A stretch of DNA of 64,000 bases from an uncultured Alphaproteobacteria bacterium (GTDB taxonomy: Bacteria; Pseudomonadota; Alphaproteobacteria; RF32; CAG-239). Made by a program: the position numbers and the translations under genes. The notes beneath the pieces were generated by a model. That model was not told the DNA's origin and did not search any database. It worked only from the letters and a program-made list of their open reading frames with translations. Of the stretch, positions 17,358 to 43,538 are shown in pieces. The DNA is taken from assembly GCA_934277435.1 (NCBI GenBank), contig CAKQUE010000001.1, forward strand, positions 781-64,780, written 5' to 3'. The number at the start of each line of letters is the position of its first letter. The first letter of the stretch is position 1.

Positions 17358-18332
17358 CTAGGTTACTTCAGTAATAGCACGCGTATTGCCTAAACGGCAA
17401 ATTTGCACCACGTGCAGTTTACGTTTCATTTCATCAAGTGTTTGCTCAACATTTACCGTACCTTGTGTAGAAGCTTGAATACGTTTGATAAATTGCAGAT
17501 AAGCTTCTTGCGAACTTTCGGCGTGGATGGTGGCAAAACAGTTATCGTGACCTGAACCCATCAGCTGCCAAATACCACTGGCGTTACTTGTGGAAATCTC
17601 ACCGCCGATAATGGCGTCAGGCGTAAAACGCACAACCAAGTCGATAATTTTTGAATAGTCCATTTCATTAGCTTGATCGGTACGTGACATTACCAAGTGA
17701 ACACGGTTTGGATGTGGCACAATCAATTCGCGCGTATCTTCAACAGTAATAATTCGTTTGTGAATATCCAAAATCTTTAGCAGATTGTTCAAAAATGTTG
17801 TTTTACCGGTAGAAGTAGCACCGCTGACCAAAATATGTTCACCGCGCTTGATATACAAAAGTAAACGTTCGTATGCATCGTCAGGAACTTTAATATCTTT
17901 AAGAGGATTTAATTTTTGCAAAGCATGACCTTGACGCATACCATAATCTTCTAGTCCAAACGCCACATCATCAGAATGCAAACGAATTGCCAACGCCACA
18001 CCGCCGGTTAAATCTTCTTCATCATACATCACGTTACGGCCGCAAATCGCCGAAAAACGATGATCTCCCGGAATTGTGGCATAAACCAGCGGCGAACCTT
18101 GCAAAGGGTCAAATTTAAGTTCATAAGTGTTTGCAATAATATAAAGTAAATCAGTCAAATATGACTTAGATAACTTTTCATCTTTATACATAACCCACGG
18201 GTAGGCACGCTTTCCGCGCACACGCAACCAAATTTGCCCCGAGCGGTTAATTGCAACTTCCTCCAAATTATCCTGATTATACCAGTAGGACAACGGGCGC
18301 AAGACAGATTCCAAAACTGCAAAATCACTCAT
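17358..18332 (-). CDS. virB11: T4SS ATPase VirB11/TrbB
   Basis: 324 aa; Walker A GATSTGKTT; VirB11 length; last gene of the vir cluster, convergent on yihA with a 3-nt gap. Confidence 0.8.
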   Translation of the reverse strand: MSDFAVLESVLRPLSYWYNQDNLEEVAINRSGQIWLRVRGKRAYPWVMYKDEKLSKSYLTDLLYIIANTYELKFDPLQGSPLVYATIPGDHRFSAICGRNVMYDEEDLTGGVALAIRLHSDDVAFGLEDYGMRQGHALQKLNPLKDIKVPDDAYERLLLYIKRGEHILVSGATSTGKTTFLNNLLKILDIHKRIITVEDTRELIVPHPNRVHLVMSRTDQANEMDYSKIIDLVVRFTPDAIIGGEISTSNASGIWQLMGSGHDNCFATIHAESSQEAYLQFIKRIQASTQGTVNVEQTLDEMKRKLHVVQICRLGNTRAITEVT

Positions 18333-18341
18333 CTTTTTCTC

Positions 18342-21300
18342 CTATAACAGCGACGGGATATCGTCATCGGTTGAAGTTTCAATTTGTTGAATTTCCGCCG
18401 GACCTTGGCCTTGTTGCATACGTTGCTGCTGTTCAGACCTCAATTGTTGCTGACGGCGCGCTGCTCCGCTGTTGCTGTTCTTTTTAGAACTTGATGACCG
18501 ATTGCCGCCGGTCGGACGAATATTTTCATCATAATCATCATTAGTTGAAACAGAACCTGAATTTGAACCTAGGCTAGGATTTCTCATTGTCAAACCTCCT
18601 GACTTATCAAAATCTCCGTTACCTGATTTATTTTTCTTGGCTCTATCTGGATTGTTCAGCCACAAATCAACCTTAGGAAAGATGATAATACGCGTACCGG
18701 CAGGAACATAGGTAACAGCTTGAATATTTGCCTTTTTCTGGACAATTTCCTTGAAAATATCATCCATTTGATCCAAAAAGTTTTGGCGAGCGTCGCTGGC
18801 TGCTTGGCTTTTTGACGAGGTCGTAGAATAACCATTCCCCTCACTTGTTCCATCTCCTGAGGCCATAAGATATGCAGTGGCGCTTTCCATAGCTGTAATC
18901 AACATCGGCGCTGTATATTTTTTCAACAGTTGTTCATCCAAATATCCAATAGCACCGGCTCTACCTTGAGCATCAGCAGTTTGTGAACCGTTTATAGTAA
19001 ATTGAGAACCATCAGGACGGATTAATCTTCTCCATGATATATCAATTTTAACAGCTCCACCGCTATTGCCACCACTGCTGCCGGAGTTTTCTCCGCTGAT
19101 TTCGCCTATAACCCTAGAACCTGCTGGAATAACAATGTTACGTCCTTCTTCGGCATAAACATTACGTTCGACAACCGCCGTTACTGGTATTCCGGAGCCT
19201 AGGCCATCAGAAGCATAAACTGAACGCGACAAAACTGCCGGAATTGGTTTGTCTTCCAAAATCATTTGGCTCATATCAACCCTCCAGCTTGAAACAGTTT
19301 TGCCAACATCCGGCCAGCCATCTTCTTCATAACCGGTAAAAGTTGACGGAGAAACATTTGAGCTTATTGAACCCACTGCCATTCCAGAACGACGGGTTGC
19401 TTGCAAATTTGCCAACGCTGCCGCTTTGCTCGGATCATAGCGTTCGCCGGCTCCATAGCCACCTCCTGGTCCGAGTGACGACGGCTTATTGCCAATGCCA
19501 TAAGCGTTACCACTGCCAAATGTTCCTGCCGGTACAAACATATTTTGCGCCGATGAACCTTTTATTTCTTCCACCCCTATCGGATTATATTTCATATCAA
19601 CAATCATACCATCTGGTGTTCTAAAACCTATCTGATTGTTGTTATCATCATAAACCTTATTATCATCATATATACTGCCCAAAATATCACCGTCCGGATT
19701 TAAGGCAATACCTATAATACGGCGATTGAACTGCCCTCCTGATGATTGCTGAGATGGTTGAATTTCATCATTTTTTAGTGGTCCTTCCTCTTGAATCTGT
19801 ACTTTTTTATAATCAGCCCAATCCTGTTTGGTATCTGTTTTTTTATTGTTTGTCGCAATATAATACTGTAATGTATATGCCTTAGCCAGTTCATCTCCAC
19901 TCGTGTTGCGGATTACACCGGCGTCAGATAAGTATCCTATATTTTGATTATCATAATCCAACACATTACCATCTATCTGCAGTTCACCCACAACATTATT
20001 GCTTGCATCACGCACAGTATAATCTCTGTTTCCGCGAGCCACAACCTGTCCTGTCTTATCAACAACAAAACCACGGTCCATTTTACCAATACGACTACCT
20101 GATGTATTCAATACTGTACCATCCTTCATAATATAGCCATATACAATAAAGTTTCCATCATACACATAAAAATCATAGAGAGCGAAACCCACTGTTTCTC
20201 CCTTATGCTGAATACTACCGTCAAAATTTATTTGCCCAACGTTTTCGCCCTTTGTATTCCATACTTGCCCGTTGTTTTGAACCATACCTAAAAAAGTATT
20301 ATCATTGCTAAATGCGACTTTATAACGCATCACGTTACCAATAACTTTTTTAGATTTTGAAATCACATTTCCATTTGGCTGCATTGCGCCCAATATTTGA
20401 TTATTATTATCGGCAACAGAACCATTTTCCATAACCTGTCCAATAATATTATTATCAAAATCAATCGCCGGAGCAGGAGTTATGACGCCATATTTCCATT
20501 TATTATCACTATCAATGACTATTCCCTGACGGTTAACACAACCCAGATTTTTATTTGCATTGTCAATTCCCTTGCCAGCATTGACAACACCGATGTAATT
20601 GCCATCAAAATCAATCAATCCGCTTTCAAAAATAGAATAACCTATGTATGAACCGACATCGGAAACAGCTTGACCGTTAGGCAGCAGGCGTCCAACAGCA
20701 ACATCACGATTATTTATAATTTCACCGCGTCCGTTTAAAATACCAAGCTGAACGCATTTGTCATTATTGACGCCAACAAACGGCACTAATTTACCGGTTA
20801 CTGAATTATTATTATCGCTTACAAAATTGCCATACAAAGCCCGACCATAAATATTGCCGTCTAAATCTGTAATTTTTCCGTTGTTCCCCGCATAGCCAAG
20901 CAAATCACCATTTGTGCCAACCGCAACCATACGAGAACCGGCAAAACCGCGCAAAGGCATAATATTTTCGCCAATATTTCCTTTGGTTTCAACAACATTA
21001 TAGCCTGGAGTAACCTTATAAGCAATTTCTCCTTTATCGTCTAAAAGCAAATTATTTGCAGCCAAACGTCCTAAAGACTGTCCCTTAAAACTCAGAGCAT
21101 AACGCACATCCAACTGACTTCCAATATAACCAGATTTTCCGGTTAATGAACCATTCATATTCATTTTAACATCTGACATTTCTCTATAAAGAGTTCCGTT
21201 TGGAGTAAGATACGAATAAACTTGCCCTTCTAAACCTAATATAGGGGTAAGGTAACGACTTCGACCGTCCAATTTGTTTTCGGCTGATAACAAATAGCCA

Positions 21301-28122: not shown

Positions 28123-28869
28123 TTAATCTTTTAATTGCTTGGTTCCGTATGAAATAACTTTAAATCCGACCGGATTTTTTAATCTTTCTTTGTATTGAAC
28201 TCTTCTTGGTTGATATTGCACCTTCAAACTTGCGCGATAACGAATTGTCCGCGGTTTATATGAAGAAGGCAAATAATAATCAACACTGTATTCAACTTGC
28301 CATGTTCCTTCTTCAATTTCATTCACAGTCAGAATTTTAACCGAACTGGTCAAGCCGTCTTGTTTCATACGCTGCATGAGCTTACGACCAGTGTTTTTTA
28401 AAAAATCCTGATATACAATGGAAGAAGACATTTCTTGCAAATCGCCGCCGTTTTGCCAGCGGGCTTCCATTTCTTCAGTGTCTGCCAATAAAGTAGTACG
28501 CAGCAAAATATATTCACGAATAAATGTTTCAGTAATTGCTTTTTCAGAATCCATATTTCGAGTATACGGAATAATACGGTATACTTGCTCTTCTTTATTG
28601 CTCAAAGTCAATAAATATGGCTCAACACGGTATAAAGGAACAATGTTTGAAATCGTCAAAAGCAAAATCATATTACAGCAAAGGCTGATAGCCGTCACAA
28701 CGGCAAAGGCTCGAGCTGTCCACAAATATCTTTTTTCACTGGCATTTACCACCAAACTATTTTCATTGCGGTTAACTCGGCGCGCTCCGGTACGCATTCC
28801 GGTTCTGACCTGTGAACCTGAATTCAAGAGCTTTTGCTGTGTGCTATTTATACCTAATTGATCAGCCAT
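28123..28869 (-). CDS. virB8: VirB8/TrbF family protein (paralog 2)
   Basis: Bitopic (TM AFAVVTAISLCCNMILLLTI); NTF2-like periplasmic domain with C-terminal …RLKNPVGFKVISY. Confidence 0.75.
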   Translation of the reverse strand: MADQLGINSTQQKLLNSGSQVRTGMRTGARRVNRNENSLVVNASEKRYLWTARAFAVVTAISLCCNMILLLTISNIVPLYRVEPYLLTLSNKEEQVYRIIPYTRNMDSEKAITETFIREYILLRTTLLADTEEMEARWQNGGDLQEMSSSIVYQDFLKNTGRKLMQRMKQDGLTSSVKILTVNEIEEGTWQVEYSVDYYLPSSYKPRTIRYRASLKVQYQPRRVQYKERLKNPVGFKVISYGTKQLKD

Positions 28870-28888: not shown

Positions 28889-29080
28889 CTAAATTGTTTC
28901 CCAAAACCAACTAGGCACATTTTTAATAGTTTCTATCTGCATGCAGGCGCACGGAGAAAGCTTAAGCTCATTAATATCCTTACCTGGTCCGACCGCTTCC
29001 GGTTCATAATATGAACCAAAAAGGCTGCATGCCGACAAAATCAGCAATAATCCCATTATTAATAAAATTTTTTTCGACAT
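28889..29080 (-). CDS. Small lipoprotein, VirB7-like
   Basis: 63 aa; lipobox LILSAC; position between virB8 paralogs and upstream of virB9. Confidence 0.5.
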   Translation of the reverse strand: MSKKILLIMGLLLILSACSLFGSYYEPEAVGPGKDINELKLSPCACMQIETIKNVPSWFWETI

Positions 29081-32900: not shown

Positions 32901-33967
32901 TGATATGTTTTGAACACTTCTTTATATTTAGGCAATAATTGTTTATAGTTATGAGCAATCACTGCCTGATTCAAATTATCATTTGCATCAGAAATTATTT
33001 CCAAGCTTTCAAATTCAGTCTCTTTTCCTTCTACTGGAGATTGCAAACCGGCGCCTGACAAATCATCAAACAAACTGTCATCTGTAGAAGCCGAAGCAAT
33101 GGTCGTTACTTCATGATATGAGGCAACATTAGTTTTGCTATTCAAATATATTTCAGCCGAACTTCTTTTTTGTTTTCCAGATGCGTTTTCAGCATCATAC
33201 TCCAAAACTTGCGCATTGCCATTTATATTTTTAATTGCATCATATTGAGCATTCATAGCATTTAGAAACAATGTATAGCGCATAATTTTATCATATATTC
33301 TAACTGCGGTTAAAGCGTTACGCCATAAACAAACCTTATCTTCTTTGCCTTCTTTCTGACAATTATATTCTTCCAACCCTTCTTCAGAACAATCTTGACC
33401 GGCAACCAAACATTTTTCGATATTATCCAGCTGTGCCAACATAGTACGCAGTTCTTTATTCATCTCTCGAGCGGTGATATACATCTCCATCGTACTATCC
33501 ATTTTTAACTGGCGCGCATTATCATCATAACGACTTTTTACACCACCATTTTTAGATGGATATTGCAAAAACAATTTGATAAAGGCTTCTTGCACCTTCC
33601 CTTCATCTTCTATTTTATCGGCCGTAGTTTTTAGACTGTCTTCAATTGTTCGCGAATAAGAAACAACTTTTTTACGCTTACTAAGACTTTGACGCAAAGA
33701 GTTAAATTTACTTTTTCCTAAATCAACAGCATATCCTTTTGCCGACTGAGTAACCATGGTCACCAAATTAGTACCATTAAAATTTTGCCGTACCTGCTCA
33801 ACTTGGGCAATTGTGGTGGTTAACGTACTGATTGTGGCTGGAGTACATTGAAAGCACAGCTGAGGAGCCATCGGCAGCAATGGAGTATAATCTGGCCAGA
33901 CCGCAAAAGCAGGGCGATTGACTAATAAGCTGCTAAAAAAAGCTAAAATATAAATAATTTTTTTCAT
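29999..33967 (-). CDS. Giant (~1320 aa) secreted coiled-coil-rich protein of unknown function in the VirB5/VirB6 slot
   Basis: Start placed at MKKIIYILAFFSSLLVNRPAFA (signal peptide) rather than the ORF-track start at 34117; no TM helices; long Lys/Glu-rich coiled-coil segments. Confidence 0.5.
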   Translation of the reverse strand: MKKIIYILAFFSSLLVNRPAFAVWPDYTPLLPMAPQLCFQCTPATISTLTTTIAQVEQVRQNFNGTNLVTMVTQSAKGYAVDLGKSKFNSLRQSLSKRKKVVSYSRTIEDSLKTTADKIEDEGKVQEAFIKLFLQYPSKNGGVKSRYDDNARQLKMDSTMEMYITAREMNKELRTMLAQLDNIEKCLVAGQDCSEEGLEEYNCQKEGKEDKVCLWRNALTAVRIYDKIMRYTLFLNAMNAQYDAIKNINGNAQVLEYDAENASGKQKRSSAEIYLNSKTNVASYHEVTTIASASTDDSLFDDLSGAGLQSPVEGKETEFESLEIISDANDNLNQAVIAHNYKQLLPKYKEVFKTYHEMMKHHNRAKQYLNESESCVMGYLSRYYKDSSEAWNGKKFVKATAIKTAETKNGTLYKTSSDKGIQAWLMKLYEEFQTEESNEQEDVYEATTSKDQDGNQEDSIYISEEIDQSVTQAASVDDINKNEEAASQKDSKGKNVKTYKKPSTEDDMYAESRKNALVNWTIGAEVSAKINSDAINGKSDFGAMTGKRDVWNDQKHFYDAYLSGKYENMKNYVDETHLLSLLLSNVTSFNDKKQYKDITDGKGKIIKTAAQQRQENKNSINKLSSLIKAGPTTEEIDKLLEEEQKSLDKLTNTYRASLKSLQNHKTSVYAKMDADSVTLSDTRDELNAHNDVIGDTEVSTPKSEDALDYGSKLERGTSVSLMRKTFSTSIKDGEVKRAEALKQRTILSAKTSGLEKSIDNSRAELENIDKQIKELQAKYIKDYSAAQNKYKQSIDKAVSDYEGKMTAYKAAIKLIFENTPILSSIHNIVTAASTQAQSKIDEAYNNIKSMGDSIYLPDNKSVVQTHNELLANLRKIDVSGSVTGSLFFADAMQDVFARIASEDKEKADSDYFVGIVEKERDFTAPKNSTLQAAPLREIFHFDTDDYDAVLKYKKGGVNSTPENVADITLAGPSFSESGLEIPEIWQNVLKPRPFVEKELNLEEFLTGDKSTDVFWSAGQYPCKIEDGKYVAALKNEYLLAKPLPDSKNCVNLSAEKIKGKSAVTDVEAAESQILSTKTTIDPQSWAEASELGQIVQIVEENAISLGNLGVLKVKKLTFNPAFNAAVVTLIKSANMNKAKGGEVKFNMDYYIANRAMFGANQFGDYLDNRENEKALAEVVAQQKLQVEDIKENLRKMFEELGYTLSEDFDLMNDADYEKASETLEEHKTGNLRRLKELIGNIKGTAEIVNTNKERLLHGVAVLEKDGDEKVQISADEDLVELEEKIKTSEADAAVLDVYDQEGQKSLNKQLARMHSPYCAVYP

Positions 33968-33983: not shown

Positions 33984-35219
33984 TTAAAAACCCTGCCAAC
34001 CGCTGATAGAGTCTTGTAATTTGTCGTTAACTGTATCTCGCAAACTCTTCTTTTTGTAGATATACTCGTCCAAATTAAACTTAGTGACATCTTGTTTGGT
34101 ATTTTTGAATTTATCATTCCAGCTATTAATCTCGACCATGCTGGTAAATCTCATTTCTGCCAACAATAATTCCAAGTAACGAGCTGCCAATTTGGCATTT
34201 TGCACGTCTGCCCCTATTTTTGCCGCCATACCACCAAGCTGACCATCAACTTTGGTGGTTTGCTCCAAATAAGCCTCAGATTTCTTTTCAAACTCTTCAC
34301 CTTTTACGGCGCCCACAACAAGAACCCTCATTAAATTTTGCAAAGCTTTATAGTATTCTTGTTGACGTTTTGTCCTAACTCGGGCAATACTTTTGGAGCC
34401 GATATATTCATATTTGCCAACAAAAAATTCCGCTATATCTGCGCCATACATATCTTCAAGCTGTTGTTGTTCTTCTTGAGCCTCAATGTCTTCTTCGTCT
34501 TTTTTGCCTGAAAACAGCGAATCTGTAACTTTATCCAGATATTTTTCCGTATTCTTACCAGCAATTGTTTGTTCCAAATCAGATACCTCCTTAGCCGCTG
34601 CCGTGGCATTTTTTTGCAGCTGTTCTGCTTTTTTATCTCGCAGAGCTGTTTGATTTTTCAAATCTTCCCTTTCAGCTTTCAACTCAGCAATTCTCTTCGC
34701 CAATTCTTCAAGTTCTTTCGCATCGCCTTTATCAGCTTTTAACCTTGCCTCCAAAATCATTAATTCTTCATCAATATTTTTTTCTTTTGCGGCGCGTTCT
34801 GTAGCCAAAGCTTTTTTATAATCGTCAAGCATAGATTGCGCCATTGCTGCCGCTAATTGCGTATTGGCAAAATTTCGGGTTGCATTGCTAAAAGAGCTGC
34901 CCAAATCAACTTTTTCACCAGAAACAGCTTGGTTTTTCACATTATCGGAAAAATCAACAACCATACCTTCCATTTGTTTTTGTAAAATATTAAACAGAAT
35001 TCCGCCTTCTGCTCCACCGGCTTTTATAGCTTTGTCGTGTAAATGTTTCAAGGAATTGCTATATCGATTTTCCCATTTTTCTTGTTCTTTTTGAACAGAC
35101 TTACCAAAATTTTCAGCTTGGGTAAAAAAGTCCAATTTAGAAATAGCATAAGCATTTGAACAAGTCAGAAAACAACTTGCTAAAACCAGAGTAAGGATTT
35201 TTAATGACATATTCTTCAT
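33984..35219 (-). CDS. Secreted coiled-coil protein (411 aa), possible VirB5-like minor pilus component
   Basis: Signal peptide MKNMSLKILTLVLASCFLTCSNAYA; strongly helical K/E/A-rich. Confidence 0.4.
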   Translation of the reverse strand: MKNMSLKILTLVLASCFLTCSNAYAISKLDFFTQAENFGKSVQKEQEKWENRYSNSLKHLHDKAIKAGGAEGGILFNILQKQMEGMVVDFSDNVKNQAVSGEKVDLGSSFSNATRNFANTQLAAAMAQSMLDDYKKALATERAAKEKNIDEELMILEARLKADKGDAKELEELAKRIAELKAEREDLKNQTALRDKKAEQLQKNATAAAKEVSDLEQTIAGKNTEKYLDKVTDSLFSGKKDEEDIEAQEEQQQLEDMYGADIAEFFVGKYEYIGSKSIARVRTKRQQEYYKALQNLMRVLVVGAVKGEEFEKKSEAYLEQTTKVDGQLGGMAAKIGADVQNAKLAARYLELLLAEMRFTSMVEINSWNDKFKNTKQDVTKFNLDEYIYKKKSLRDTVNDKLQDSISGWQGF

Positions 35220-35233
35220 GGTGTTTCCTTTCT

Positions 35234-36934
35234 CTAATTATTTCCACTGTTCGGCCAAGTAGAAGTTTTTGAAGATGCCCCTGAGGAATTATTTCCCCAG
35301 AGTGAGAAATTCCAATTTGGTGAACTTTTGGTGTTTTTCTCATCACCTTTTGGCGCAAATGGAGGGGTAACTTGCGAATCGTCTGTTTCCTCTTGACTTG
35401 TATCACTTTCTTTGTTGGCTGGTTTTGGCTGATTTTCATGTGTCAACGGATATTCAAAATCAGAACCATCTTTTGTATCAGAGCCAGTATCAGTATCTGT
35501 ATCGGCAGAGCCTTCTGTTTTTTCATTATCTTTATTTTTATCTTCTGTTTTTACCGTGTTTTTCACATCATTATAGGCGTTCTCAGCCCCTTTCGCTGCT
35601 GCCTTCCAGTCTCCTTTGCCAACATTATAAATAATACTGTCTGAAGAGTTTGCACCTTTTTGCACACCGGACATTATATTTTTCGTTTTGTCATCCATAT
35701 AGCTTCCGCCAACACTGGTCGCTCCAGATGCCAAATTGCCGATTGCAGCGCCATAATTGCCACTTTGTACATTATTCGCAGCATTTTTACCCGCATTATA
35801 GGTCGAACCAGCGTTACCAATATAATCACCGGCCTTATCTAAGCCATAATCTCCGGCAATATCACCGGCTTCACCCAAAGCCCCGCCGTAATCACCGCTT
35901 TTAACGTCATTTATGGTTCTTTTACCTTTATCATAAGTACTGCCGGCTTTACCAATATAATCACCGGCCTTATCCAAGCCATAATCTCCGGCAATATCAC
36001 CGGCTTCACCCAAGGCACCGCCGTAGTCACCATTTTTAACCTTGCCATAGATATCCTTGCCTTTATTAAACATTTCTTTACCTTTATTTGGGTCTATCAG
36101 CAAGTCTGCACCGTTTCCGTTTTGTAAACCATTAGCCAGATTCAAAGAACTTGCTTGTTCTTTTTTAGCGGCTTCCTCTGCAGCTTGCTCGTCTTTATCC
36201 GCTCTACTAATAGACACGCCCAAATATTCAATAGATGCTTTTTGACCGTAGTAATTAGCGGTAAAGTCCAAAATAGAGCGCCAACGGGCGTTAGCTCGGT
36301 CAACGGTTTGAGTATACGACTTAGTTAAAATCGGTATAAGTCCCTCACATCTTCCGCTATCACTTTCGCTTCCGCCTTCTGTGCTGCCGCTGCACTCTTC
36401 AATTAGTTCTTTCAGCTGCTTTTCTTCTTCATCAAGTTGTTCGGTTTCATTGATGATGGAGCGACGGGTTACTAAAGCCTTTGCATATAGTATTGACACA
36501 TTCTGCACTTGCAATTTGTTTAACTTTTCGCGGCGTTCTCTGGCTTTTTGAGCATCATTATTGACTTGATTATTTCGAGACATCTCATTATTGACGGCAT
36601 TAGCTAATTCTGGAGTAGCAAAACTTCCTTTAACTTTTCCGGAAATTCCTTTTAAGACTTTAGAACGGATTATCATTTGCGGAGCATATTTAACAGCCGA
36701 ACCGATTGCCAATTTTTGACCAGCCTTTTTCAAACTCTTTAGTTTATTAGGACTGTTGGTCAATTGCTGCATATCAAGCTCTTTACCCGTATAATTCTTG
36801 ATAATGGTGTTTATTTGCTCCTGATAAGTAGTCAGTTGATCTTGAATAAAAGTGGTCGGATCAAAGTCTGCAAAAGAAGCATAAGGAAACAGAGCTATAA
36901 TAGCACTGCAAACTACAGTTATTTTTATTCTCAT
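35234..36934 (-). CDS. Secreted protein (566 aa) with internal 45-aa tandem repeat (GDYGGALGEAGDIAGDYGLDKAGDYIG…) and S/T/D/N-rich tail
   Basis: Signal peptide; repeated block seen at protein and DNA level. Confidence 0.45.
   Translation of the reverse strand: MRIKITVVCSAIIALFPYASFADFDPTTFIQDQLTTYQEQINTIIKNYTGKELDMQQLTNSPNKLKSLKKAGQKLAIGSAVKYAPQMIIRSKVLKGISGKVKGSFATPELANAVNNEMSRNNQVNNDAQKARERREKLNKLQVQNVSILYAKALVTRRSIINETEQLDEEEKQLKELIEECSGSTEGGSESDSGRCEGLIPILTKSYTQTVDRANARWRSILDFTANYYGQKASIEYLGVSISRADKDEQAAEEAAKKEQASSLNLANGLQNGNGADLLIDPNKGKEMFNKGKDIYGKVKNGDYGGALGEAGDIAGDYGLDKAGDYIGKAGSTYDKGKRTINDVKSGDYGGALGEAGDIAGDYGLDKAGDYIGNAGSTYNAGKNAANNVQSGNYGAAIGNLASGATSVGGSYMDDKTKNIMSGVQKGANSSDSIIYNVGKGDWKAAAKGAENAYNDVKNTVKTEDKNKDNEKTEGSADTDTDTGSDTKDGSDFEYPLTHENQPKPANKESDTSQEETDDSQVTPPFAPKGDEKNTKSSPNWNFSLWGNNSSGASSKTSTWPNSGNN
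35816..36030. repeat. Intragenic tandem repeat, 135-bp period, two copies with ~80-bp near-identical cores
   Basis: accaatataatcaccggccttatc[t/c]aagccataatctccggcaatatcaccggcttcacccaa… occurs at 35816 and 35951. Confidence 0.7.
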
Positions 36935-36973: not shown

Positions 36974-38356
36974 TTAATTGTTTGCTTTCTTCTTTTGACC
37001 TGTGATTACCACCTCATCCATACACCCAGTGCATTTTCCTTCTTTGCAGGCAAAAGTTTTACTTCCATCTTTGTATTTGCCGTCTGGACAAGCAACTTGC
37101 TTTGAGCCATCGGAACATACCGCGCCACTTGTTGATGCACTAAGCAGCTTATAACCACTTACCTCTTTTAGATTATCATCATAACAAGCAAGTTCCTCTT
37201 CTTCTGCACCATTAGGATCTTCATCGGCATCTAAATCCAAATTAGGTTCGCTGTCATCTTGTGGATTATCCGGTGTAACAACGATTTCTTCTACACAAGA
37301 TGTACATGTTCCGCCTTTGCACGCAATAAACGTTCTCTCGCCACTTTGATAAATACCGTCCTGACATGCTGATTCTTGATTGCCATCGGAGCATACAACA
37401 TTTCCAGACGCAGAATTTTTTGGAGTTATACCGCTAATCTTTTTTAAGCTTTCATCTGAACATAATTCTTCTGAACTTTGGCTATCTGATGTTTCGTCGT
37501 CAGTAATTGTTGATGAGGTATTGATTTCTGATGAAGATATTGTTTTATCCCCGCTTGCTGCATTGCCAGCAACCGTTGTACCAGCTGTTCCCTCTTCTGC
37601 AGTTCCTTCATCATCATTTCCGGCAGCCAAAGCCGATAACTCAATATCCTTAATACCAGATATAGCTTCATATTTTAATCTTTCAGCATAAAGGTCACGC
37701 ATTGTATTCATAACATCAGTTGAAATACTTATGGTATTGGCAATACCGACATTATCTTCGTGCTCGGTTTTGGTTTGACTGACTGCTTTTCCGGTAGAGT
37801 TTTGAATTTCTTCATAATTAGCAATGGCCGCACCTTTGGCAACCGCTTGCGACATCATAGCTTTTAGCTCTTCCGCCCGAATTTCATCCCAGTCATTTAA
37901 TCCCTCTTGGCGAATTAATGAATCTTTATTTTTTATTTTTTTTACCATCTTATTAATGCAATCATAAAGCTTTTCCGTATCTTTAACCATATCAATAGCG
38001 TTAGTTTTGCAAAAAATAGCCATAGTGTTAGGAATAACCTGACGTCCATTGACCAAACCGCTATAATTAACATCTATCTTTTCTTTTTTGGGTTTATTCC
38101 CATTGCCGGTGCCACCGGTAGCGGAACTAGATGCAGAAGTAGATGATGTTGACGAAGGAGTTGACGTCACCGGCTTAGGTTCAGAGCTAGATTCTGTTGT
38201 TGTAGTTGTAATTGTTGCCAAATCAGTTGTAGTGGTTTCTGTCGTGGTAGAAGTTCCGTTTTCAGTAGTGCTATCTGCGGCTTTAGCGTATTCAGCCATT
38301 CCGATAAGCAAAGAAGCAACGGTGGCAATTTTTAGAAATTTATTAAATGTTATCAT
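36974..38356 (-). CDS. Secreted Thr/Ser-rich protein with two C-terminal Cys-rich ~45-aa modules
   Basis: Signal peptide; poly-T/S linker; duplicated module C-SDG…AC-DG-Y–G–TF-CK-G-CT-C—E-VVT. Confidence 0.45.
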   Translation of the reverse strand: MITFNKFLKIATVASLLIGMAEYAKAADSTTENGTSTTTETTTTDLATITTTTTESSSEPKPVTSTPSSTSSTSASSSATGGTGNGNKPKKEKIDVNYSGLVNGRQVIPNTMAIFCKTNAIDMVKDTEKLYDCINKMVKKIKNKDSLIRQEGLNDWDEIRAEELKAMMSQAVAKGAAIANYEEIQNSTGKAVSQTKTEHEDNVGIANTISISTDVMNTMRDLYAERLKYEAISGIKDIELSALAAGNDDEGTAEEGTAGTTVAGNAASGDKTISSSEINTSSTITDDETSDSQSSEELCSDESLKKISGITPKNSASGNVVCSDGNQESACQDGIYQSGERTFIACKGGTCTSCVEEIVVTPDNPQDDSEPNLDLDADEDPNGAEEEELACYDDNLKEVSGYKLLSASTSGAVCSDGSKQVACPDGKYKDGSKTFACKEGKCTGCMDEVVITGQKKKANN

Positions 38357-38378
38357 CTTTTTGCTCCTTCACTATTTT

Positions 38379-39164
38379 TTATTTTTCTTCTGTATCTGTT
38401 TTAGCACCATCGCTTTCTGCTTTTTCTTCGGCTTTTTTCTTTTCTTCGGCTTGCTTTTGTGCTTCAGCACGCTTTTCTTCTTCAGCCTTTTGCTGGTCAT
38501 GTTCATCTTTCATACCTTGATAAACTTTCATACCAGATTTACCGGCGGAATCATAGAGATTTTTGCCCACTGTGGTAATAGAGCCGCCGCTTTTAATTGC
38601 GTCAGCCCCGCCAAACGCTGCGTCTGACGTGCTGCGCCCATATTTTTTCACCCAGCTGTAAGCCTGACTCCATTTACTTTTTTTAGCCTTTTCATTATTT
38701 GCTTTTTGAGCTGCATCAGCTTGTTTTTGCGCTTCTGCATTATCTTTAGCTGTCTCTTCGGCTGCTTTTGCTGCTGTTTCTTGATTTTTTTCTTTTACTT
38801 TAGCTTCTTCTTCTTTTTTCTTTTTTGTAGCGTCAGCACCGTCTTCCAAAACCTGTTTGGAATCGGCGTACATTTTGCCATATCTATCATAATCGCCACG
38901 TTCTATTTTGCCAAACAATTCGCCGGCAGCAGCAGCATAACCACCGTTTTGGATTTGTCTGATAATATTCAGATTGCTTTGGACTTCTATTTGTACTTGT
39001 TTTGCTATTTGTGATGCTTGTTTAGCAGAATCGCCCAAACGTTTCCAGTCCACTGTCGGTAGCGGATAAGCCATGCAAACGGAAGACCACATATAAATTA
39101 AAAGGCTTGCCAAGGTGCAAACAACAATATTTACTCTAAAAACTTTCATAACGTCCTCCGTCAA
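38379..39164 (-). CDS. Secreted Lys/Glu/Ala-rich low-complexity protein (261 aa), VirB5-position
   Basis: Signal peptide then helical low-complexity; immediately downstream of virB4. Confidence 0.4.
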   Translation of the reverse strand: MTEDVMKVFRVNIVVCTLASLLIYMWSSVCMAYPLPTVDWKRLGDSAKQASQIAKQVQIEVQSNLNIIRQIQNGGYAAAAGELFGKIERGDYDRYGKMYADSKQVLEDGADATKKKKEEEAKVKEKNQETAAKAAEETAKDNAEAQKQADAAQKANNEKAKKSKWSQAYSWVKKYGRSTSDAAFGGADAIKSGGSITTVGKNLYDSAGKSGMKVYQGMKDEHDQQKAEEEKRAEAQKQAEEKKKAEEKAESDGAKTDTEEK

Positions 39165-39232
39165 ACCTTATTATAATTATATACTCTTATAGTACCTTAT
39201 TTTTTTGCAAAAGTTAAGACTTTTTCAAAAAC

Positions 39233-41662
39233 CTAGGCAATATTTAAATATTTTGTAACAAATCCATCTTCCCCATATTCTTGAATGAGTTGTTGAACCA
39301 ACAAAACATTTTTTCTTCCTGAATTGTAAATACGCAAATATTTGCCTAATCCACCTAAATTTACATCCAAAATAACCGATTCACCAGTTACTGGGCGTGA
39401 TAATAATATGGCGTACGGAAAATCGCGGTAACTTTTACCAAAAATAAAATCAAGTTCGCTTTGAGTCAAATTCCAGTTGGCGTAGTCTTCTATCTGTGCT
39501 TGCGGGTTGCGGAAAAAGATAACCGTTTGACATTGACCGCGAATAACCTCGCCGACACCTAACTTATCAACAATATTCGGTTGTTGGAAGGCGCAGAGAT
39601 AGGCTTGACGTTTTTTACGTCCCTCTTGCAAACCAATTATAAAGTAATCACGGAACATTGGGTGTTTTAACATTGGCGCCGTTTCATCAATCATAATCAA
39701 TGACGGCACACCGGTTTCACCAGTTTCAGATTGAATACGATGCATAATATAGCTGATTACCGCCGGCGCAAGGTTTTCATCTTCAAAAATATGTGTAAAG
39801 TCAAACGCCATAAAACGACGGCTCTTCAAATCCAAACTATCGTCTTGCCCATTGAAAATAGCACCATACTGATCCGGATTTACCCAACGGTATAATTCAC
39901 GACGCATATTTCCGGTTGGTGAAAAACAACTCTTATACAAGTTTTTCAACAAACGTTCTTCCGGCCGCAAATAGTCAAATGCCGTGGTAATAGCGCGTGC
40001 AACTTCTCTTTCGGCCAACGCATCGTCAACCATGGTGATAGCTTTCAACCAACGACGCAAAAATGCTCGGTTTTCAGGAGTATTTGCGCAGTCAAACGGA
40101 TTAAGCGATACATTTTTTTCATCACCGTCGAAACCTACATAAGCACCTTTAACAGCGCGGGTAAAAATTTGAGCACCCAAGTGTCTATCAAAGAAGAAAA
40201 CTCGCAAATCACCATGCCGCATAGCTTGTCCGGCTAAAAATGTGAGCAATGTGGTTTTACCTTGACCAGTAGGACCGATAATGCAACAGTGCGCCACGGC
40301 AGACTCTTCGCTGGACACATGGAATTGAAAACGATACGCTGAACCCGACATAGTTCTAAACACAGTAATAGCGCCATTTCCCCAGTCACTTTTGCTAAAT
40401 CCTTCCGCCGGTTTATCCATAGTTGTCGCCATAGCGATAACTCTTGACAAGTAGCGATACGTTCTTGGATAGGTGTCGTATGTTGGAAATTGCGTAAAGA
40501 ACACAGCTTGATTAACCCAGCCTTCTCGAACAGGTGTCACACCAAACGCGCGACAGATACGTTGTACTTCAGATTCCCCAAAATTTATCTCTTCTTTTGA
40601 TTCGCCTTTGATAATCACTGTAAACGCATATTCACACAGCGATTGATAGTTATTATCACTATCATCAATAGCAGCTAAAGCTTCGCTGTATTGGTCCGAA
40701 ACATTTTCTGAAAAGCTGGTAACACGCGACATTCTTTGTTGCTGCATCAAAAGCATACGCCCTTCCGAACGGAAAAGCGGACGGATATTTTGCAATATTA
40801 CTAGCTCGCAATCAATAGCATTCAGCGAATAAATCATACTTTCATCCATAGCTTCGCCGCTGGAACGAATACCCATAGCAATTTCATAGAGATTTTTTTC
40901 GCCGGAAAAGAAATGAATTATACCTTCCTCTTTGGTAAAATGAATATGGTCGGCAGTCAGCATCTCGCACAATCTAGCGCCTTCAACATCTCTAACCTTT
41001 GGCTCTGGTTTAGAAATAGGGCTGCATAGCCGCGAAAACAAATAAAACGGGCTATCCTCTGCCTTACTTTCAGGAGTTTCATACATTGGTCTGACACCGT
41101 ATTCACTTAAAGTAGAAAGCAAACTTTGAGAAGCGTAGTTCAAATCTTTTAAAGCGTCCTTACGGTCAATAACCGACAGAATTATATAGTGCTTGTTGCT
41201 ATACACCCTATCCATATTTTGGAACCAAATTTGCGAAATTGTGTCAAGCAGCTGGTTATTGAAATCTCTTTTTTCTTTTTCCAATGAAATTCTTTCACGC
41301 GTTGTGATAACTCGGCAGACAATTTGCATATTAGCCATATCATCAATCCACGATTTGCGAGCCTCCATCATGGAATATACTTTTTCTCCAGTGGCGGCAG
41401 ACAAATCCATACCCTCAAGTTTGAAAACACGGGCAAAAGAATTATTACTGCACTGGATAGTAACGCCATCAGACATCAGTTTGGTAAACGGTAAAAAATC
41501 TGAAACGCGAGATTCCCTTGGCTGCGGCAAAACCATTCGACCGAATCTGGTTGAAAGCAAAACCGCAAACGACGCCGCCGAAGCAATACCAATCAAAGCC
41601 ACAATTACTTGTAAGCTGTTTAATCCTTCGACAAATATACTCATAAAATCATAGTTATTCAT
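39233..41662 (-). CDS. virB4: T4SS ATPase VirB4/TrbE/CagE
   Basis: 809 aa; Walker A GPTGQGKTTLLTFL; VirB4 length and position after virB3. Confidence 0.85.
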   Translation of the reverse strand: MNNYDFMSIFVEGLNSLQVIVALIGIASAASFAVLLSTRFGRMVLPQPRESRVSDFLPFTKLMSDGVTIQCSNNSFARVFKLEGMDLSAATGEKVYSMMEARKSWIDDMANMQIVCRVITTRERISLEKEKRDFNNQLLDTISQIWFQNMDRVYSNKHYIILSVIDRKDALKDLNYASQSLLSTLSEYGVRPMYETPESKAEDSPFYLFSRLCSPISKPEPKVRDVEGARLCEMLTADHIHFTKEEGIIHFFSGEKNLYEIAMGIRSSGEAMDESMIYSLNAIDCELVILQNIRPLFRSEGRMLLMQQQRMSRVTSFSENVSDQYSEALAAIDDSDNNYQSLCEYAFTVIIKGESKEEINFGESEVQRICRAFGVTPVREGWVNQAVFFTQFPTYDTYPRTYRYLSRVIAMATTMDKPAEGFSKSDWGNGAITVFRTMSGSAYRFQFHVSSEESAVAHCCIIGPTGQGKTTLLTFLAGQAMRHGDLRVFFFDRHLGAQIFTRAVKGAYVGFDGDEKNVSLNPFDCANTPENRAFLRRWLKAITMVDDALAEREVARAITTAFDYLRPEERLLKNLYKSCFSPTGNMRRELYRWVNPDQYGAIFNGQDDSLDLKSRRFMAFDFTHIFEDENLAPAVISYIMHRIQSETGETGVPSLIMIDETAPMLKHPMFRDYFIIGLQEGRKKRQAYLCAFQQPNIVDKLGVGEVIRGQCQTVIFFRNPQAQIEDYANWNLTQSELDFIFGKSYRDFPYAILLSRPVTGESVILDVNLGGLGKYLRIYNSGRKNVLLVQQLIQEYGEDGFVTKYLNIA

Positions 41663-41949
41663 GGCTCAAACTTGTTTCCTTGCACTGCGTATAAATTATG
41701 GCTTATTTTATTACTTTGTCCATAGGCTTGAAGCATGGTTGACAAATGTGGCTCTTTAAAACCAGCCACAACCAGAGCTGCATGTGCGACAATTATACTG
41801 AAAATAAAATACAAAGGGTTTAATCCAGATATTCCAACTCCCATAAACAACATCGGAAACTGAATACCCAAATTAATCATTGACGGCACCATAGGGGCAA
41901 ACAAAAATTTGGGCGGCTGAGCCACAGCTTTTAAAATTTCTTCCCGCAT
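41659..41949 (-). CDS. virB3: VirB3/TrbD-like small inner-membrane protein
   Basis: 96 aa, two hydrophobic segments, 4-nt overlap with virB4. Confidence 0.6.
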   Translation of the reverse strand: MREEILKAVAQPPKFLFAPMVPSMINLGIQFPMLFMGVGISGLNPLYFIFSIIVAHAALVVAGFKEPHLSTMLQAYGQSNKISHNLYAVQGNKFEP

Positions 41950-41950
41950 A

Positions 41951-42379
41951 TTATCTCCTCCGCAATTTTTGTTTAAGTTCCAAAACAGACTTAGTATCTT
42001 TCACGGCTGAAAAAGCAACTTGGTTAATTTGCTGATAGCTTTTGGAATTAACAACCACCAAATTTTTTTTCTGAGCAGTACGTTTCACCGTATCTTGATA
42101 CTGCCGAGTCAACTGATTTTGTTCATCCAAAGCCATTTGGGCTTTATCCTCGAGTAAATCGGCTATATCATTTTCACTATTTATTACCGCGTCAGGATTT
42201 TTGGCCAAGACTTTATCTATCTCTCGTAATTTTTTTATTTTAATTGCTGTAGCGGCGTTAAGTTTATACAAATTAGAAGTTTGCTCTCCCGGAGTTGCCT
42301 GAGCTTCCTCAACATTCATATACGCCAATGCCGTATGACTTAGCAGCATAAATGAGAATATTGATAATAATAACTTCAT
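41951..42379 (-). CDS. Secreted coiled-coil protein (142 aa) between virB2 paralogs and virB3
   Basis: Signal peptide MKLLLSIFSFMLLSHTALA; helical, charged. Confidence 0.35.
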   Translation of the reverse strand: MKLLLSIFSFMLLSHTALAYMNVEEAQATPGEQTSNLYKLNAATAIKIKKLREIDKVLAKNPDAVINSENDIADLLEDKAQMALDEQNQLTRQYQDTVKRTAQKKNLVVVNSKSYQQINQVAFSAVKDTKSVLELKQKLRRR

Positions 42380-42391
42380 TTATCTACCTCA

Positions 42392-42778
42392 TTAAGGTTT
42401 ATTTCCACTTTTCGGTACACTATTTGATTGAGCGTCTCCTGGTGGAGTTGCATTTCCTCCCACGCCGTTTGTCACCACTCCCGCGTCACCACTAACGCGC
42501 AAATAATCATGAATAGCCCCTTTCAACAGTAACGTGATAATAAAAGTACTCATCATGATATAAGCCAAAGTTTTCCAGCTAACTTTATTAAAAATGGCAG
42601 CAACAGAAAACGCCAATAGTCCCAAACCGGCTACCATATAGCCAAATTTGGCCAGACCGGTTCCCATTGCATCACCAAGATCTTTTAGTCTATCAAAAAC
42701 ATCGGCATGCGCCTCTGGTATGGACGCAAAAAGCAAAACAAGAACCATAAAAAAGAGAATATTGTATTTTTTAATCAT
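42392..42778 (-). CDS. virB2: VirB2/TrbC pilin paralog 3
   Basis: Long signal peptide, two hydrophobic helices, conserved …F(N/G)K(V/F)xWKxxA… shared by the three paralogs. Confidence 0.6.
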   Translation of the reverse strand: MIKKYNILFFMVLVLLFASIPEAHADVFDRLKDLGDAMGTGLAKFGYMVAGLGLLAFSVAAIFNKVSWKTLAYIMMSTFIITLLLKGAIHDYLRVSGDAGVVTNGVGGNATPPGDAQSNSVPKSGNKP

Positions 42779-42788
42779 TACTTATCTC

Positions 42789-43151
42789 CTATTTGACACC
42801 AATTAAATCGGCACTTAGCTCATTAGCGCCAATCAAACTTGTGGCGGCCCAAGACATTACAAAAACGCCGATAGAAATAGCGGCAAACCATTTCCAATTG
42901 AAGCTACCGAACATACCAGCAATACAACAGCAGGCGATACCAATTGTTGCCGCAGGAGCTATAATCTTATACAATCCGGCAAAAATACTTTTACCGGCAT
43001 TATTTAAGGCATCAAAAGTTTCAGCTGACGCAGCAAATGCGCATAAGAATACTGAAAGGAACAAACCGATAGTATACTTATTGCTATCTAAAAATTTCAA
43101 CATTCTTATAAACATTTCATCCCTCCAAAATTTTATATTTATTTTTCCCAA
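42789..43151 (-). CDS. virB2: VirB2/TrbC pilin paralog 2
   Basis: As above (…FGSFNWKWFAAISIGVFVMSWA…). Confidence 0.6.
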   Translation of the reverse strand: MGKINIKFWRDEMFIRMLKFLDSNKYTIGLFLSVFLCAFAASAETFDALNNAGKSIFAGLYKIIAPAATIGIACCCIAGMFGSFNWKWFAAISIGVFVMSWAATSLIGANELSADLIGVK

Positions 43152-43175
43152 AGAGGCACTGGGTGCCTCTTTGGA
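43148..43175 (-). terminator. Stem-loop immediately downstream of first virB2 paralog (possible attenuator/partial terminator)
   Basis: ccaaagaggcac-tggg-gtgcctctttgg 12-bp perfect stem, AT-rich flank. Confidence 0.4.
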
Positions 43176-43184
43176 AGGATAAAA

Positions 43185-43538
43185 TTAGATACCAGTATTA
43201 TTACCAAGGGTATCCTCAAATTGGTTACCAACTGCATTATTGGTATTTGCAGCATAGTTAACAATAGCACCAGCGGCGGCCACAACAGCCAAACCAAAAG
43301 CCAAAGCAGCAAACCACGGCCATTTTACTTTACCAAAAATAGCTTGGAACGCCAAGGCCACCAAACCAAAACCACCAATCATAAAAATAACAAGTTTTGC
43401 GTTTGTAAACAAGTTGGCCATTTTTTTGATGGCCGTACCAAACACAGAATCAGCGGCAGAGGCATCTCCGAGCATAACAACTGTAAACAATAATGACATT
43501 GTTACAATGCTCAAAATATTTGATTTTAAAAATTTCAT
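43185..43538 (-). CDS. virB2: VirB2/TrbC pilin paralog 1 (first gene of the vir operon)
   Basis: 117 aa; …FGKVKWPWFAALAFGLAVVAAAGAIV…. Confidence 0.65.
   Translation of the reverse strand: MKFLKSNILSIVTMSLLFTVVMLGDASAADSVFGTAIKKMANLFTNAKLVIFMIGGFGLVALAFQAIFGKVKWPWFAALAFGLAVVAAAGAIVNYAANTNNAVGNQFEDTLGNNTGI

Follow-up and report, generated by a model that had tools for sequence, protein, structure and literature searches.

A putative chromosomal P-type type IV secretion system, probably split between loci, in uncultured gut Alphaproteobacteria

Gene content of the locus

The stretch of DNA analysed here (hereafter the window) comprises 64,000 nucleotides (nt) of an uncultured alphaproteobacterium of the GTDB lineage RF32, CAG-239 (GenBank assembly GCA_934277435.1, contig CAKQUE010000001.1, positions 781 to 64,780 of the forward strand). 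Eighteen co-directional genes fill its minus strand from position 43538 to position 17358, with short gaps or overlaps between them, and this row appears to be the main operon of a type IV secretion system (T4SS) of the P type. Open reading frames (ORFs) were scanned with the hidden Markov models (HMMs) of Pfam and NCBIfam, and hydrophobic segments were located with a Kyte-Doolittle scan. The order is virB2 (three genes), a gene for a small secreted protein, virB3, virB4, five genes for signal-peptide proteins (middle proteins 1 to 5), virB8, virB7, virB8, virB9, a first giant gene, a second giant gene that encodes the VirB10 barrel, and virB11. The original prediction, read from the sequence letters, had given these calls in this order, all on the minus strand, and the HMM searches reproduced every one of them at the same positions. 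Two details were corrected: the start of the fifth middle gene is most likely an internal ATG (33967), where gene callers place it in other assemblies, and giant 1 has an N-terminal transmembrane (TM) anchor. The genes are as follows (lengths in amino acids, aa).

43185..43538, minus strand: VirB2/TrbC pilin 1, 117 aa, the operon's first gene (PF04956, E 7.9e-8)
42789..43151, minus strand: VirB2/TrbC pilin 2 (PF04956, E 2.1e-8)
42392..42778, minus strand: VirB2-like pilin 3, 128 aa, with a Gly/Pro-rich tail (PF04956, E 1e-5)
41951..42379, minus strand: small Sec-exported helical protein, 142 aa, signal peptide ending in ALA
41659..41949, minus strand: VirB3, 96 aa (PF05101, E 6.4e-4; BLASTP 3e-10 to the annotated VirB3 of Microvirga pMVF16-3)
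39233..41662, minus strand: VirB4 ATPase, 809 aa (TIGR00929, 5.4e-115; PF03135, 6.9e-15)
38379-39164 (ORF), minus strand: middle protein 1, ~256 aa from the ATG (38379..39149), with a signal peptide, a conserved N-terminal domain and a Lys/Glu-rich tail
36974..38356, minus strand: middle protein 2, 460 aa, with a signal peptide, a Ser/Thr-rich stretch, a conserved helical core and two Cys-rich modules at the C-terminus
35234..36934, minus strand: middle protein 3, 566 aa, with a signal peptide, a conserved N-terminal ~240 aa and Gly-rich repeats
33984..35219, minus strand: middle protein 4, 411 aa, all-helical, with a signal peptide and a profile match to TrwJ
29999..33967, minus strand: middle protein 5, 1322 aa from the internal ATG, with a signal peptide, conserved over its whole length
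29227..29982, minus strand: VirB8 paralogue a, 251 aa, before virB7 (PF04335, 1.8e-13; profile A7 against 4mei, 7.2e-7)
28889..29080, minus strand: VirB7-like lipoprotein, 63 aa, with the lipobox LSAC
28123..28869, minus strand: VirB8 paralogue b, 248 aa, after virB7 (PF04335, 3.1e-22; profile A6 against 4mei, 4.7e-10)
26375..28105, minus strand: VirB9/CagX, 576 aa, with a Gly/Ser-rich linker and a C-terminal SPOR domain (PF03524, 2e-10)
22562..26365, minus strand: giant 1, 1267 aa (PF21785, 2.7e-65 in 13 stretches; PF21784, 5.1e-30)
18342..22562, minus strand: giant 2, 1406 aa (PF03743, 4.8e-30 at aa 1101-1302; PF21785, 3e-52)
17358..18332, minus strand: VirB11 ATPase, 324 aa, the operon's last gene (TIGR02788, 3.1e-42; PF00437, 6.4e-24)

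Apart from VirB6, the core components that point to a P-type T4SS are all present. VirB2 and VirB3 are represented by the three PF04956 genes and by a weak PF05101 match accompanied by an annotated plasmid homologue; the Walker A (GPTGQGKT) and Walker B (LIMIDE) motifs of VirB4 are both intact; VirB8, VirB9, VirB10 and VirB11 are recognised through PF04335 (in two genes), PF03524, PF03743 and TIGR02788, respectively, and the Walker A motif of VirB11 (GATSTGKT) is intact as well.

Within the species, no gene is more polymorphic than that of pilin 1 (87-100% aa identity vs 98-100% for its neighbours), and the strain differences concentrate at the mature N-terminus and in the C-terminal tail. Pilin 2 is 120 aa long when read from a TTG codon and 108 aa when read from the ATG (end 43115) used by gene callers in other assemblies (six loci). 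The match of pilin 3 scores 26.1 bits, slightly below the Pfam cut-off of 27.9; the third pilin of more distant relatives carries a C-terminal extension of ~300 aa, which brings it to 413-436 aa in total. The 142-aa secreted protein has no match among the Pfam and NCBIfam families, and its own family is conserved in 43 related loci.

Conservation and genomic context

Human gut metagenome contigs encode proteins identical to VirB4 (contigs of up to 298 kb) and to VirB11 (up to 561 kb). A scan of one-genome-per-species GTDB contigs confirmed VirB4 relatives on 228 stretches, which extends the system to more than 200 species, and the comparisons of related loci reported here use the best 80 of these 228, in which VirB4 is 75-98% identical. 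Nearly all of the best 80 are labelled as uncultured Alphaproteobacteria, including 'Candidatus Scatocola', and their host animals are represented by human, ruminant, horse, rabbit and chicken guts. The architecture of the operon is kept in every related locus examined that extends far enough, and distant members (VirB4 ~77%) retain the same gene order. One flank of the operon consists of the core genes engB-yidC-rnpA. Locus and flanks are alike in GC content (0.35-0.43 in the locus), which rules out horizontal acquisition as judged by base composition. These core-gene flanks, the flank-like GC content and the same architecture throughout the lineage indicate a P-type T4SS that is chromosomal and vertically inherited, with this region as its main operon, rather than a recent mobile element; the persistence of one chromosomal architecture across loci with VirB4 identity down to 75% likewise argues for vertical inheritance. 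Literature searches for a T4SS of this lineage, or for systems that lack VirB6, found no description.

Nearly all species groups examined differ from one another downstream of virB11. In a relative with VirB11 86% identical (locus L097, 11023-15186), a gene for a 1387-aa autotransporter is inserted between virB11 and engB.

VirB7, VirB8, VirB9 and a probable split VirB10

The two VirB8 paralogues of the operon are 28% identical. Paralogue a, encoded before virB7, is the faster-evolving copy, and paralogue b is the more conserved of the two in the same genomes. The small lipoprotein encoded between them, already called VirB7-like in the original prediction, is homologous to the small lipoprotein encoded upstream of plasmid virB8 genes (E 6.6e-9 for Erythrobacter and 6.3e-7 for Microvirga); since it combines this homology with the LSAC lipobox, the call holds. 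VirB9 ends in a peptidoglycan-binding SPOR domain (PF05036, 2.4e-4, 21.8 bits vs a cut-off of 21), and is 38% identical to the VirB9 of the Erythrobacter plasmid, whose C-terminus is weakly similar.

The next two genes encode giant proteins dominated by repeats of the beta-flower fold, a fold described in 2023 with no known function (PMC10584680). Giant 1 begins with a short cytoplasmic tail, followed by a TM helix (residues 19-37), an Ig-like domain and ~1000 aa of beta-flower repeats; its residues 114-170 weakly match the N-terminal part of the Microvirga VirB10 (BLASTP E 0.06; hhalign 33%). Giant 2 begins with a signal peptide, continues with another ~1000 aa of beta-flower repeats and ends in a VirB10/TrbI barrel, which among solved structures is matched by Helicobacter pylori ComB10 (2bhv, 3.4e-17), TrwE (1.8e-5) and CagY (1.5e-4), and in NCBIfam by the ComB10 family (1.6e-29). 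The stop codon of giant 1 overlaps the start of giant 2, GGAGGAACTAATG, behind a Shine-Dalgarno sequence, and all relatives examined encode both giants, with lengths of 1037-1580 aa and 1400-1681 aa. The idea that the giants are one gene broken by a stop codon or a frameshift is ruled out by the Shine-Dalgarno sequence with the TAATG overlap and by the presence of two genes in all relatives. Our inference is that beta-flower repeats were added to an ancestral VirB10, which was split into a half for the inner membrane (giant 1) and a half for the outer membrane (giant 2). The putative split VirB10 totals 2673 aa over the two genes.

Five secreted proteins between VirB4 and VirB8

All five middle proteins start with a signal peptide, and the Kyte-Doolittle scan showed no hydrophobic segment beyond it, in agreement with the earlier reading of them as proteins without TM helices; none matches a Pfam or NCBIfam family. 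The thought that one of them might be a divergent VirB6, on which that reading could have foundered, found no support, as a TrbL domain and a TM helix are missing from all five. ORF clustering across the related loci resolved them into five distinct conserved families, each detected in 36-78 loci. In the nearest species they are 34-52% identical where VirB4 of the same genomes is 93-95% identical; in relatives at VirB4 77%, four of the five are mostly undetectable by tblastn, and the slot is still filled by four or five signal-peptide proteins of similar size. No toxin or enzyme domain was found in the five proteins by Pfam and NCBIfam searches, which for the 1322-aa family covered 27 members.

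The family of middle protein 1 was found in 36 loci, among the closer relatives of the subset examined, with 39-45% identity where VirB4 is 93-95%; according to the family alignment, its N-terminal domain carries the motif FPLPTxD...IQNGGYAAAAG...GDYDRFG. The family of middle protein 2 is present in 78 loci, its conservation is limited to the first ~250 aa, and its members in distant relatives begin with a VirB5-like 'WPTFD' motif. Middle protein 3 (family in 69 loci) is 521 or 566 aa long in different strains of the species, and its gene contains a 135-nt tandem repeat of 1.9 copies (35814-36066). Comparison of the profiles of families 1-3 with PDB sequences returned low-complexity or coiled-coil noise only. 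For the 411-aa family of middle protein 4, the profile matches the VirB5 protein TrwJ of R388 (7o3v_A) with E 3.9e-4, positions 4-218 aligning with 1-206 of 229, amid coiled-coil false positives. Read by eye, several of the middle proteins show a P-x-x-D motif followed by a helix after the signal peptide, as in VirB5/TrbJ, and local profile-profile comparison among the middle families (hhalign) gave weak but mutually consistent links. Middle protein 4 is the best candidate, although a weak one, for a VirB5-like protein.

The largest of the five, the 1322-aa middle protein 5, belongs to a family with 212 representatives at E <= 1e-3 (170 at <= 1e-10) in 1.84 billion proteins; about four fifths of the 150 matches listed are 1200-1855 aa long and the remainder are shorter, and 27 members of the family gave no Pfam match. 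AlphaFold 2 (AF2) modelling with a diverse alignment yielded a mean predicted local distance difference test (pLDDT) score of 69.8, with values of 80-95 over residues 500-1200, and the predicted structure is a very long coiled-coil hairpin with an alpha/beta head. The search of the model against PDB folds found no match at E <= 1e-3. The fold list repeatedly named the alpha-pore-forming toxins AhlB, SmhB and YaxB, none of them significantly: all matches have E > 0.01 and a template modelling score (TM-score) <= 0.13 on the query.

VirB6, VirD4 and traces of a second locus

As the original prediction had stated, no TrbL/VirB6 protein, VirD4, relaxase or lytic transglycosylase (VirB1) was recognised among the scanned ORFs of the 64-kb window. 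A polytopic ORF between virB4 and virB8 was found in none of the ~80 related loci. Neither the window nor the gene tables for the flanks of the relatives showed the domain of the type IV coupling protein (VirD4), and no relaxase was seen in the window or in any locus fetched.

A 278-aa polytopic ORF at 13273-14109 was considered as a hidden VirB6 and rejected, as it corresponds to the C-terminal part of what is elsewhere a 392-aa DnaJ-domain membrane protein. The gene of that polytopic protein, which has a C-terminal zinc ribbon, lies at 12932-14109 on the plus strand and is split by a 1-nt indel relative to the 392-aa form; the indel reflects either a pseudogene or a sequence error.

A VirB6 candidate was found in the relatives. 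Those with VirB11 77% identical encode a TrbL/VirB6 protein of 837-887 aa, ~7 kb past virB11 and on the opposite strand, with a PF04610 match above the Pfam cut-off (E 5.9e-8) and six to seven hydrophobic segments; this TrbL-bearing relative is very widespread, and one copy lies on a 1.85-Mb contig of GCA_046970505.1. The trbL gene stands beside genes for an XRE-type helix-turn-helix regulator, a ~1050-aa M23 peptidase and four uncharacterised proteins (L094, 11073-20969; also L096, L106 and L107). In the part of these loci that was fetched, no virB8 is visible, and no other credible polytopic VirB6 candidate was seen in any fetched locus. In another relative (L103), a third virB8 heads a four-protein cluster (864, 244, 425 and 239 aa) and is divergent from a gene for a lipoprotein with He_PIG and OEP domains; between the four-protein clusters of the two groups of relatives, three proteins are 47-74% identical and the fourth 32%. 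The species of the window likewise has a third VirB8, of 258 aa, encoded ~9.5 kb to the left of the window start (L100, 18269-20648); it is 37% identical to the window's second VirB8, and its gene is divergent from that of a 627-aa lipoprotein with OEP and He_PIG domains.

The relatives' M23 peptidase could be a peptidoglycan-remodelling replacement for VirB1, or an antibacterial effector.

These observations show that T4SS genes are scattered in this genome and that the lineage possesses a large VirB6, and from the two together a split system follows as the most economical reading. A VirB6 encoded elsewhere is therefore favoured, the VirB6 of this species being deduced from that of its relatives, and the apparent lack of VirB6 is probably an effect of viewing one locus of a split system. 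The original prediction had offered two alternatives, VirB6 and VirD4 encoded elsewhere or a non-canonical machine. The first gained ground for VirB6, through the TrbL of the relatives and the third virB8 nearby, and gained none for VirD4, which appeared in no locus.

Proposed organisation and alternative explanations

We consider it probable, if by no wide measure, that the locus belongs to a chromosomal, split P-type T4SS whose VirB6 acts in trans and whose exposed, variable parts contact a target cell, for adhesion or for translocation. VirB6 would be supplied from the second locus, VirB4 and VirB11 would power an inner-membrane complex of VirB3, VirB4 and VirB8, and VirB7, VirB9 and VirB10 would form the outer-membrane core. 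VirB10 would consist of an inner-membrane-anchored half and an outer-membrane barrel half, and the ~1000 residues of beta-flower repeats in each half may fill or span the periplasm as an enlarged scaffold. An exposed stalk, a pilus tip or a surface would consist of the five Sec-exported proteins from the VirB5/VirB6 slot and of the three pilins, with the 1322-aa protein as a long coiled-coil stalk with a globular head and one middle protein that is weakly VirB5-like. Such exposed parts may contact the target cell (a host, a protist or another bacterium) and would be under diversifying pressure. The output could be a Trw-like adhesion organelle, or a contact-dependent effector translocator with its coupling protein encoded elsewhere, and the type IVb pilus encoded next to the operon probably gives the initial attachment.

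Several results weigh against parts of this proposal. The relatives' TrbL, used as a tblastn query, found no match in the window or in ~100 other loci, including the reachable sequence of this species, and closer species (VirB11 86-90% identical) have no TrbL next to virB11. A polytopic VirB6 is likewise missing from its usual slot in the three plasmid T4SS operons closest to this one, so the clade possibly works without a canonical VirB6. No effector, immunity or VirD4 gene was identified in the window or in the fetched loci, and for this reason the function, adhesion or translocation, is put forward as conjecture. As for the VirB5 part, the TrwJ match of the 411-aa family sits among coiled-coil false positives, which makes the assignment a weak one; 30 members of the family gave no match to PF07996 (VirB5) or to any other Pfam family, and AF2 modelling of the 411-aa protein from a shallow alignment was unusable (pLDDT 40). 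With a weak TrwJ match among noise, weak links between the families and no Pfam VirB5 match, 'VirB5-like' is a lead rather than a finding.

The absence of VirB6 from the operon may also be taken at face value. The machine would then be independent of VirB6, soluble Sec-exported VirB5-like proteins having taken its slot, and the relatives' TrbL would serve another purpose or system. Besides the ~80 related loci, none of which has a polytopic ORF between virB4 and virB8, the complete conjugative plasmids of Erythrobacter and Sphingosinicella, which have a relaxase and VirD4, show no polytopic ORF in the operon, and it is these operons that keep the explanation alive; moreover, TrbL adjoins the locus in one species group only. 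We nevertheless judge it unlikely: in a widespread relative a TrbL above the Pfam cut-off lies ~7 kb from virB11, beside a cluster of the kind headed by the third virB8, and to our knowledge every characterised T4SS needs VirB6. VirB6 is too divergent for BLAST, and tblastn searches of the plasmid collection with the relatives' TrbL and the Paracaedimonas VirB6, which gave no useful matches, are for this reason uninformative on the other regions of the plasmids. A bolder version, in which a whole clade (the gut and rumen lineage together with the MOBQ plasmids of Sphingomonadales and Hyphomicrobiales) works without canonical VirB6 on a VirB5-like stalk, with the VirB10 of the gut members split as a beta-flower scaffold, appears rather unlikely.

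Hardly more credible is an exporter that works in two steps, like Ptl, with the five middle proteins as cargo that passes through Sec and then through a VirB7/9/10 channel with no need of a coupling protein. There is a precedent, as pertussis toxin subunits are Sec-exported and the Ptl system has no VirD4; the signal peptides on all five proteins, the lack of VirD4 in the locus and in the relatives' loci and the recurrence of alpha-pore-forming toxins in the fold list of the 1322-aa protein, none of them significant, would suit such an exporter. In every genome examined, however, the five genes occupy the VirB5/VirB6 slot of the structural operon; conservation of the 1322-aa protein extends over its full length, as expected of a structural part; a weak VirB5 match was obtained for one middle protein, the searches detected no domain of a toxin or an enzyme, and the fold matches all have E > 0.01. 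It is also doubtful that the locus is a member or sister of the Rickettsiales rvh systems outside that order, sharing an ancestral arrangement, scattered islets and a large VirB6. The order B8 (divergent)-B7-B8 (conserved)-B9-B10-B11 does match that of Rickettsia typhi (PMC4676284), five genes follow virB3-virB4, the relatives' VirB6 is large, the T4SS genes are scattered, and the VirB10 barrel is closest to ComB10 while rvh has been reported to have ComB affinities (PMC2653234). Yet the five proteins encoded after virB4 have neither a TrbL domain nor TM helices, no second VirB4 or VirB9 was seen, virB11 is not followed by virD4, the VirB8 profiles miss the solved Rickettsia RvhB8-II, and the nearest VirB4 proteins in the plasmid collection, which holds no rvh proteins, are those of MOBQ systems. 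Least of all do we expect that the locus serves the transfer of an integrated conjugative element, or that it is a system of DNA uptake or release of the ComB or gonococcal genetic island (GGI) type, although the closest relatives are T4SSs of conjugative plasmids, the VirB10 barrel is most like ComB10, and the type IVb pilus encoded alongside is reminiscent of the thin pilus known from IncI plasmids. The locus showed no relaxase, coupling protein or integrase and no boundaries of an element, it is flanked by the core genes rnpA, yidC and engB with the same GC content as its own, the chromosomal architecture is the same in related loci down to VirB4 75%, and VirB11 is intact here whereas ComB systems have none.

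Neighbouring genes

Two further features of the window concern type IV pili.

43849..53733, plus strand: type IVb pilus cluster, divergent from the T4SS operon (Pfam and NCBIfam matches)
54501..55466, minus strand: PilT-like ATPase, 321 aa, part of the type IV pilus (TIGR01420 pilT_fam, 6e-35)

The pilus cluster encodes an uncharacterised 554-aa protein, TcpQ, a secretin, PilO, a PilP-like protein of 535 aa, the assembly ATPase and the PilR/T2SSF platform protein; the system resembles the R64 thin pilus or the toxin-coregulated pilus (TCP), and it adjoins the T4SS in 49 of the 54 relatives' loci that extend far enough. The ATPase at 54501-55466 was considered as a second VirB11 and ruled out by its scores (pilT_fam 6e-35 vs VirB11 3.1e-14). 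A prepilin-like protein of 215 aa is encoded at 184-831 on the minus strand, and its paralogues are scattered outside the window. Two genes for EIIA-2 (PtsN-like) proteins of the phosphotransferase system, at 1156-1599 and 2411-2854 on the minus strand, are separated by ~0.8 kb and located downstream of hpf, lptB and lptC/lptA; the interval from lptB to hpf showed no rpoN.

Significance

These Alphaproteobacteria are common and uncultured in the guts of humans, ruminants and other animals, and we know of no account of how they interact with their hosts or neighbours. A chromosomal, lineage-wide T4SS together with a type IVb pilus, with hypervariable exposed parts, suggests an obligate cell-contact lifestyle, and the two systems offer a concrete handle for studying it. 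The unusual features of the locus are the split giant VirB10 with beta-flower arrays, the triplicated VirB8, the SPOR-tagged VirB9 and the five fast-evolving, lineage-specific families of secreted proteins, and the locus can be regarded as a natural experiment in T4SS architecture. It supplies a defined molecular context for the orphan beta-flower fold. If the system truly lacks VirB6, the stalk model derived from R388 would be challenged, and a VirB6-less clade with a beta-flower scaffold that spans the periplasm or lies at the surface would be the first functional context for this fold. An rvh-like gene order outside Rickettsiales also bears on the question of whether this 'hallmark' arrangement is ancestral or convergent.

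Comparison with known systems

In the plasmid collection, the closest VirB4 proteins are those of Microvirga, Erythrobacter, Sphingosinicella and 'Ca. Paracaedimonas' (39, 34, 35 and 30% identical, respectively), and the other plasmid VirB4 proteins among the matches listed are 26% identical or less. These relatives, Microvirga sp. VF16 pMVF16-3, Erythrobacter aureus YH-07, Sphingosinicella sp. BN140058 p1 and 'Ca. Paracaedimonas acanthamoebae', carry conjugative P-type T4SSs of the MOBQ type with the same backbone, B2-B3-B4-[slot]-B7-B8-B9-B10-B11, and their VirB3, VirB7 lipoprotein, VirB9, VirB10 and VirB11 are homologous to those of the window. The closest plasmid slots hold a VirB5-like protein and a soluble protein of 420-450 aa with a VirB5-like N-terminus (L008, 22469-24709; L111, 16538-18683; L007, 22351-25218); no polytopic protein is found in the Erythrobacter and Sphingosinicella operons, and the Microvirga slot has a 228-aa protein with three hydrophobic segments. 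The plasmids differ from the window in having one pilin, one VirB8, a VirB10 of 530-590 aa, a MobA/MobL relaxase upstream and VirD4 downstream. In the window the pilins number three and the VirB8 proteins two, five secreted proteins are encoded, VirB9 bears a SPOR domain and VirB10 is split; the location is chromosomal, with no relaxase or VirD4 at the locus.

The Rickettsiales rvh systems share several traits with the locus. In R. typhi the order is rvhB8-II, rvhB7, rvhB8-I, rvhB9-II, rvhB10, rvhB11 (PMC4676284), which corresponds to B8-B7-B8-B9-B10-B11 here, the copy after B7 being the conserved one, and in Rickettsia virB3-virB4 is followed by five genes (PMC2653234), as it is in the window. 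Components distributed over several loci and the lack of a clear VirB5 are further likenesses, and the large VirB6 of the window's relatives (837-887 aa) compares with the 668-1154 aa of RvhB6 proteins (PMC2653234). VirB8 is duplicated around VirB7 with one divergent copy, and a third copy lies outside the window. The hallmark of rvh, multicopy large VirB6 paralogues after virB3-virB4 (10.1101/2023.02.26.530123), is absent, however, because the five genes after virB4 encode soluble secreted proteins; VirB4 and VirB9 are not duplicated, one of each being seen in the window and in all loci fetched, and, unlike in rvh, virD4 does not follow virB11 and the pilin genes stand together as the first genes of the operon. 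Profiles A6 and A7 of VirB8 (E <= 1) matched the VirB8 of Bartonella, Agrobacterium and Brucella and TrwG, and not R. typhi RvhB8-II, so that no affinity to Rvh proteins is apparent at the sequence level.

The Trw system of Bartonella has been described as an organelle of adhesion, one that assembles variable pili and does not translocate substrates (PMC4676284). The window resembles it in its tandem multiple VirB2 genes, possibly in multiple VirB5-like genes, in the lack of a coupling protein in the locus and in its variable exposed parts, and differs in that its middle proteins are five families, not recent tandem copies, with one weak VirB5 match. Bartonella Trw, derived from R388-like plasmids, co-amplifies VirB6 and VirB7 with VirB5.

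Like the Cag system of Helicobacter, the locus encodes a giant, repeat-bearing VirB10 homologue and extra signal-peptide proteins among the core genes, and the C-terminal domain of CagY is a detectable homologue of the barrel. The repeats of the window are beta-flower domains, though, and not CagY repeats, and VirB10 is split over two genes. No Pfam or NCBIfam match in the locus was to a Cag-specific family (CagM, Cag3, CagT, CagL/I/H, CagA), the CagX match being to the generic VirB9 family. The Cag island holds both VirB6 (CagW) and VirD4 (Cag-beta). With the ComB system of H. pylori the locus shares a VirB10 barrel that is by far closest to ComB10 among solved structures and the lack of VirD4; ComB has neither VirB11 nor pilus-associated extras, in contrast to the window with its intact VirB11. 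Among P-type T4SSs, VirD4 is present in the conjugative and effector-translocating ones and absent in Ptl, Trw, Brucella VirB and ComB.

The original prediction had described the locus as a hybrid of rvh, Trw and Cag features. As a statement of resemblance this is borne out by the B8-B7-B8-B9-B10-B11 order, the multiple pilins and the giant repeat-bearing VirB10; as a statement of membership in any of these systems it does not stand. The locus is probably an unusual, heavily decorated version of a known machine rather than a VirB6-less one.

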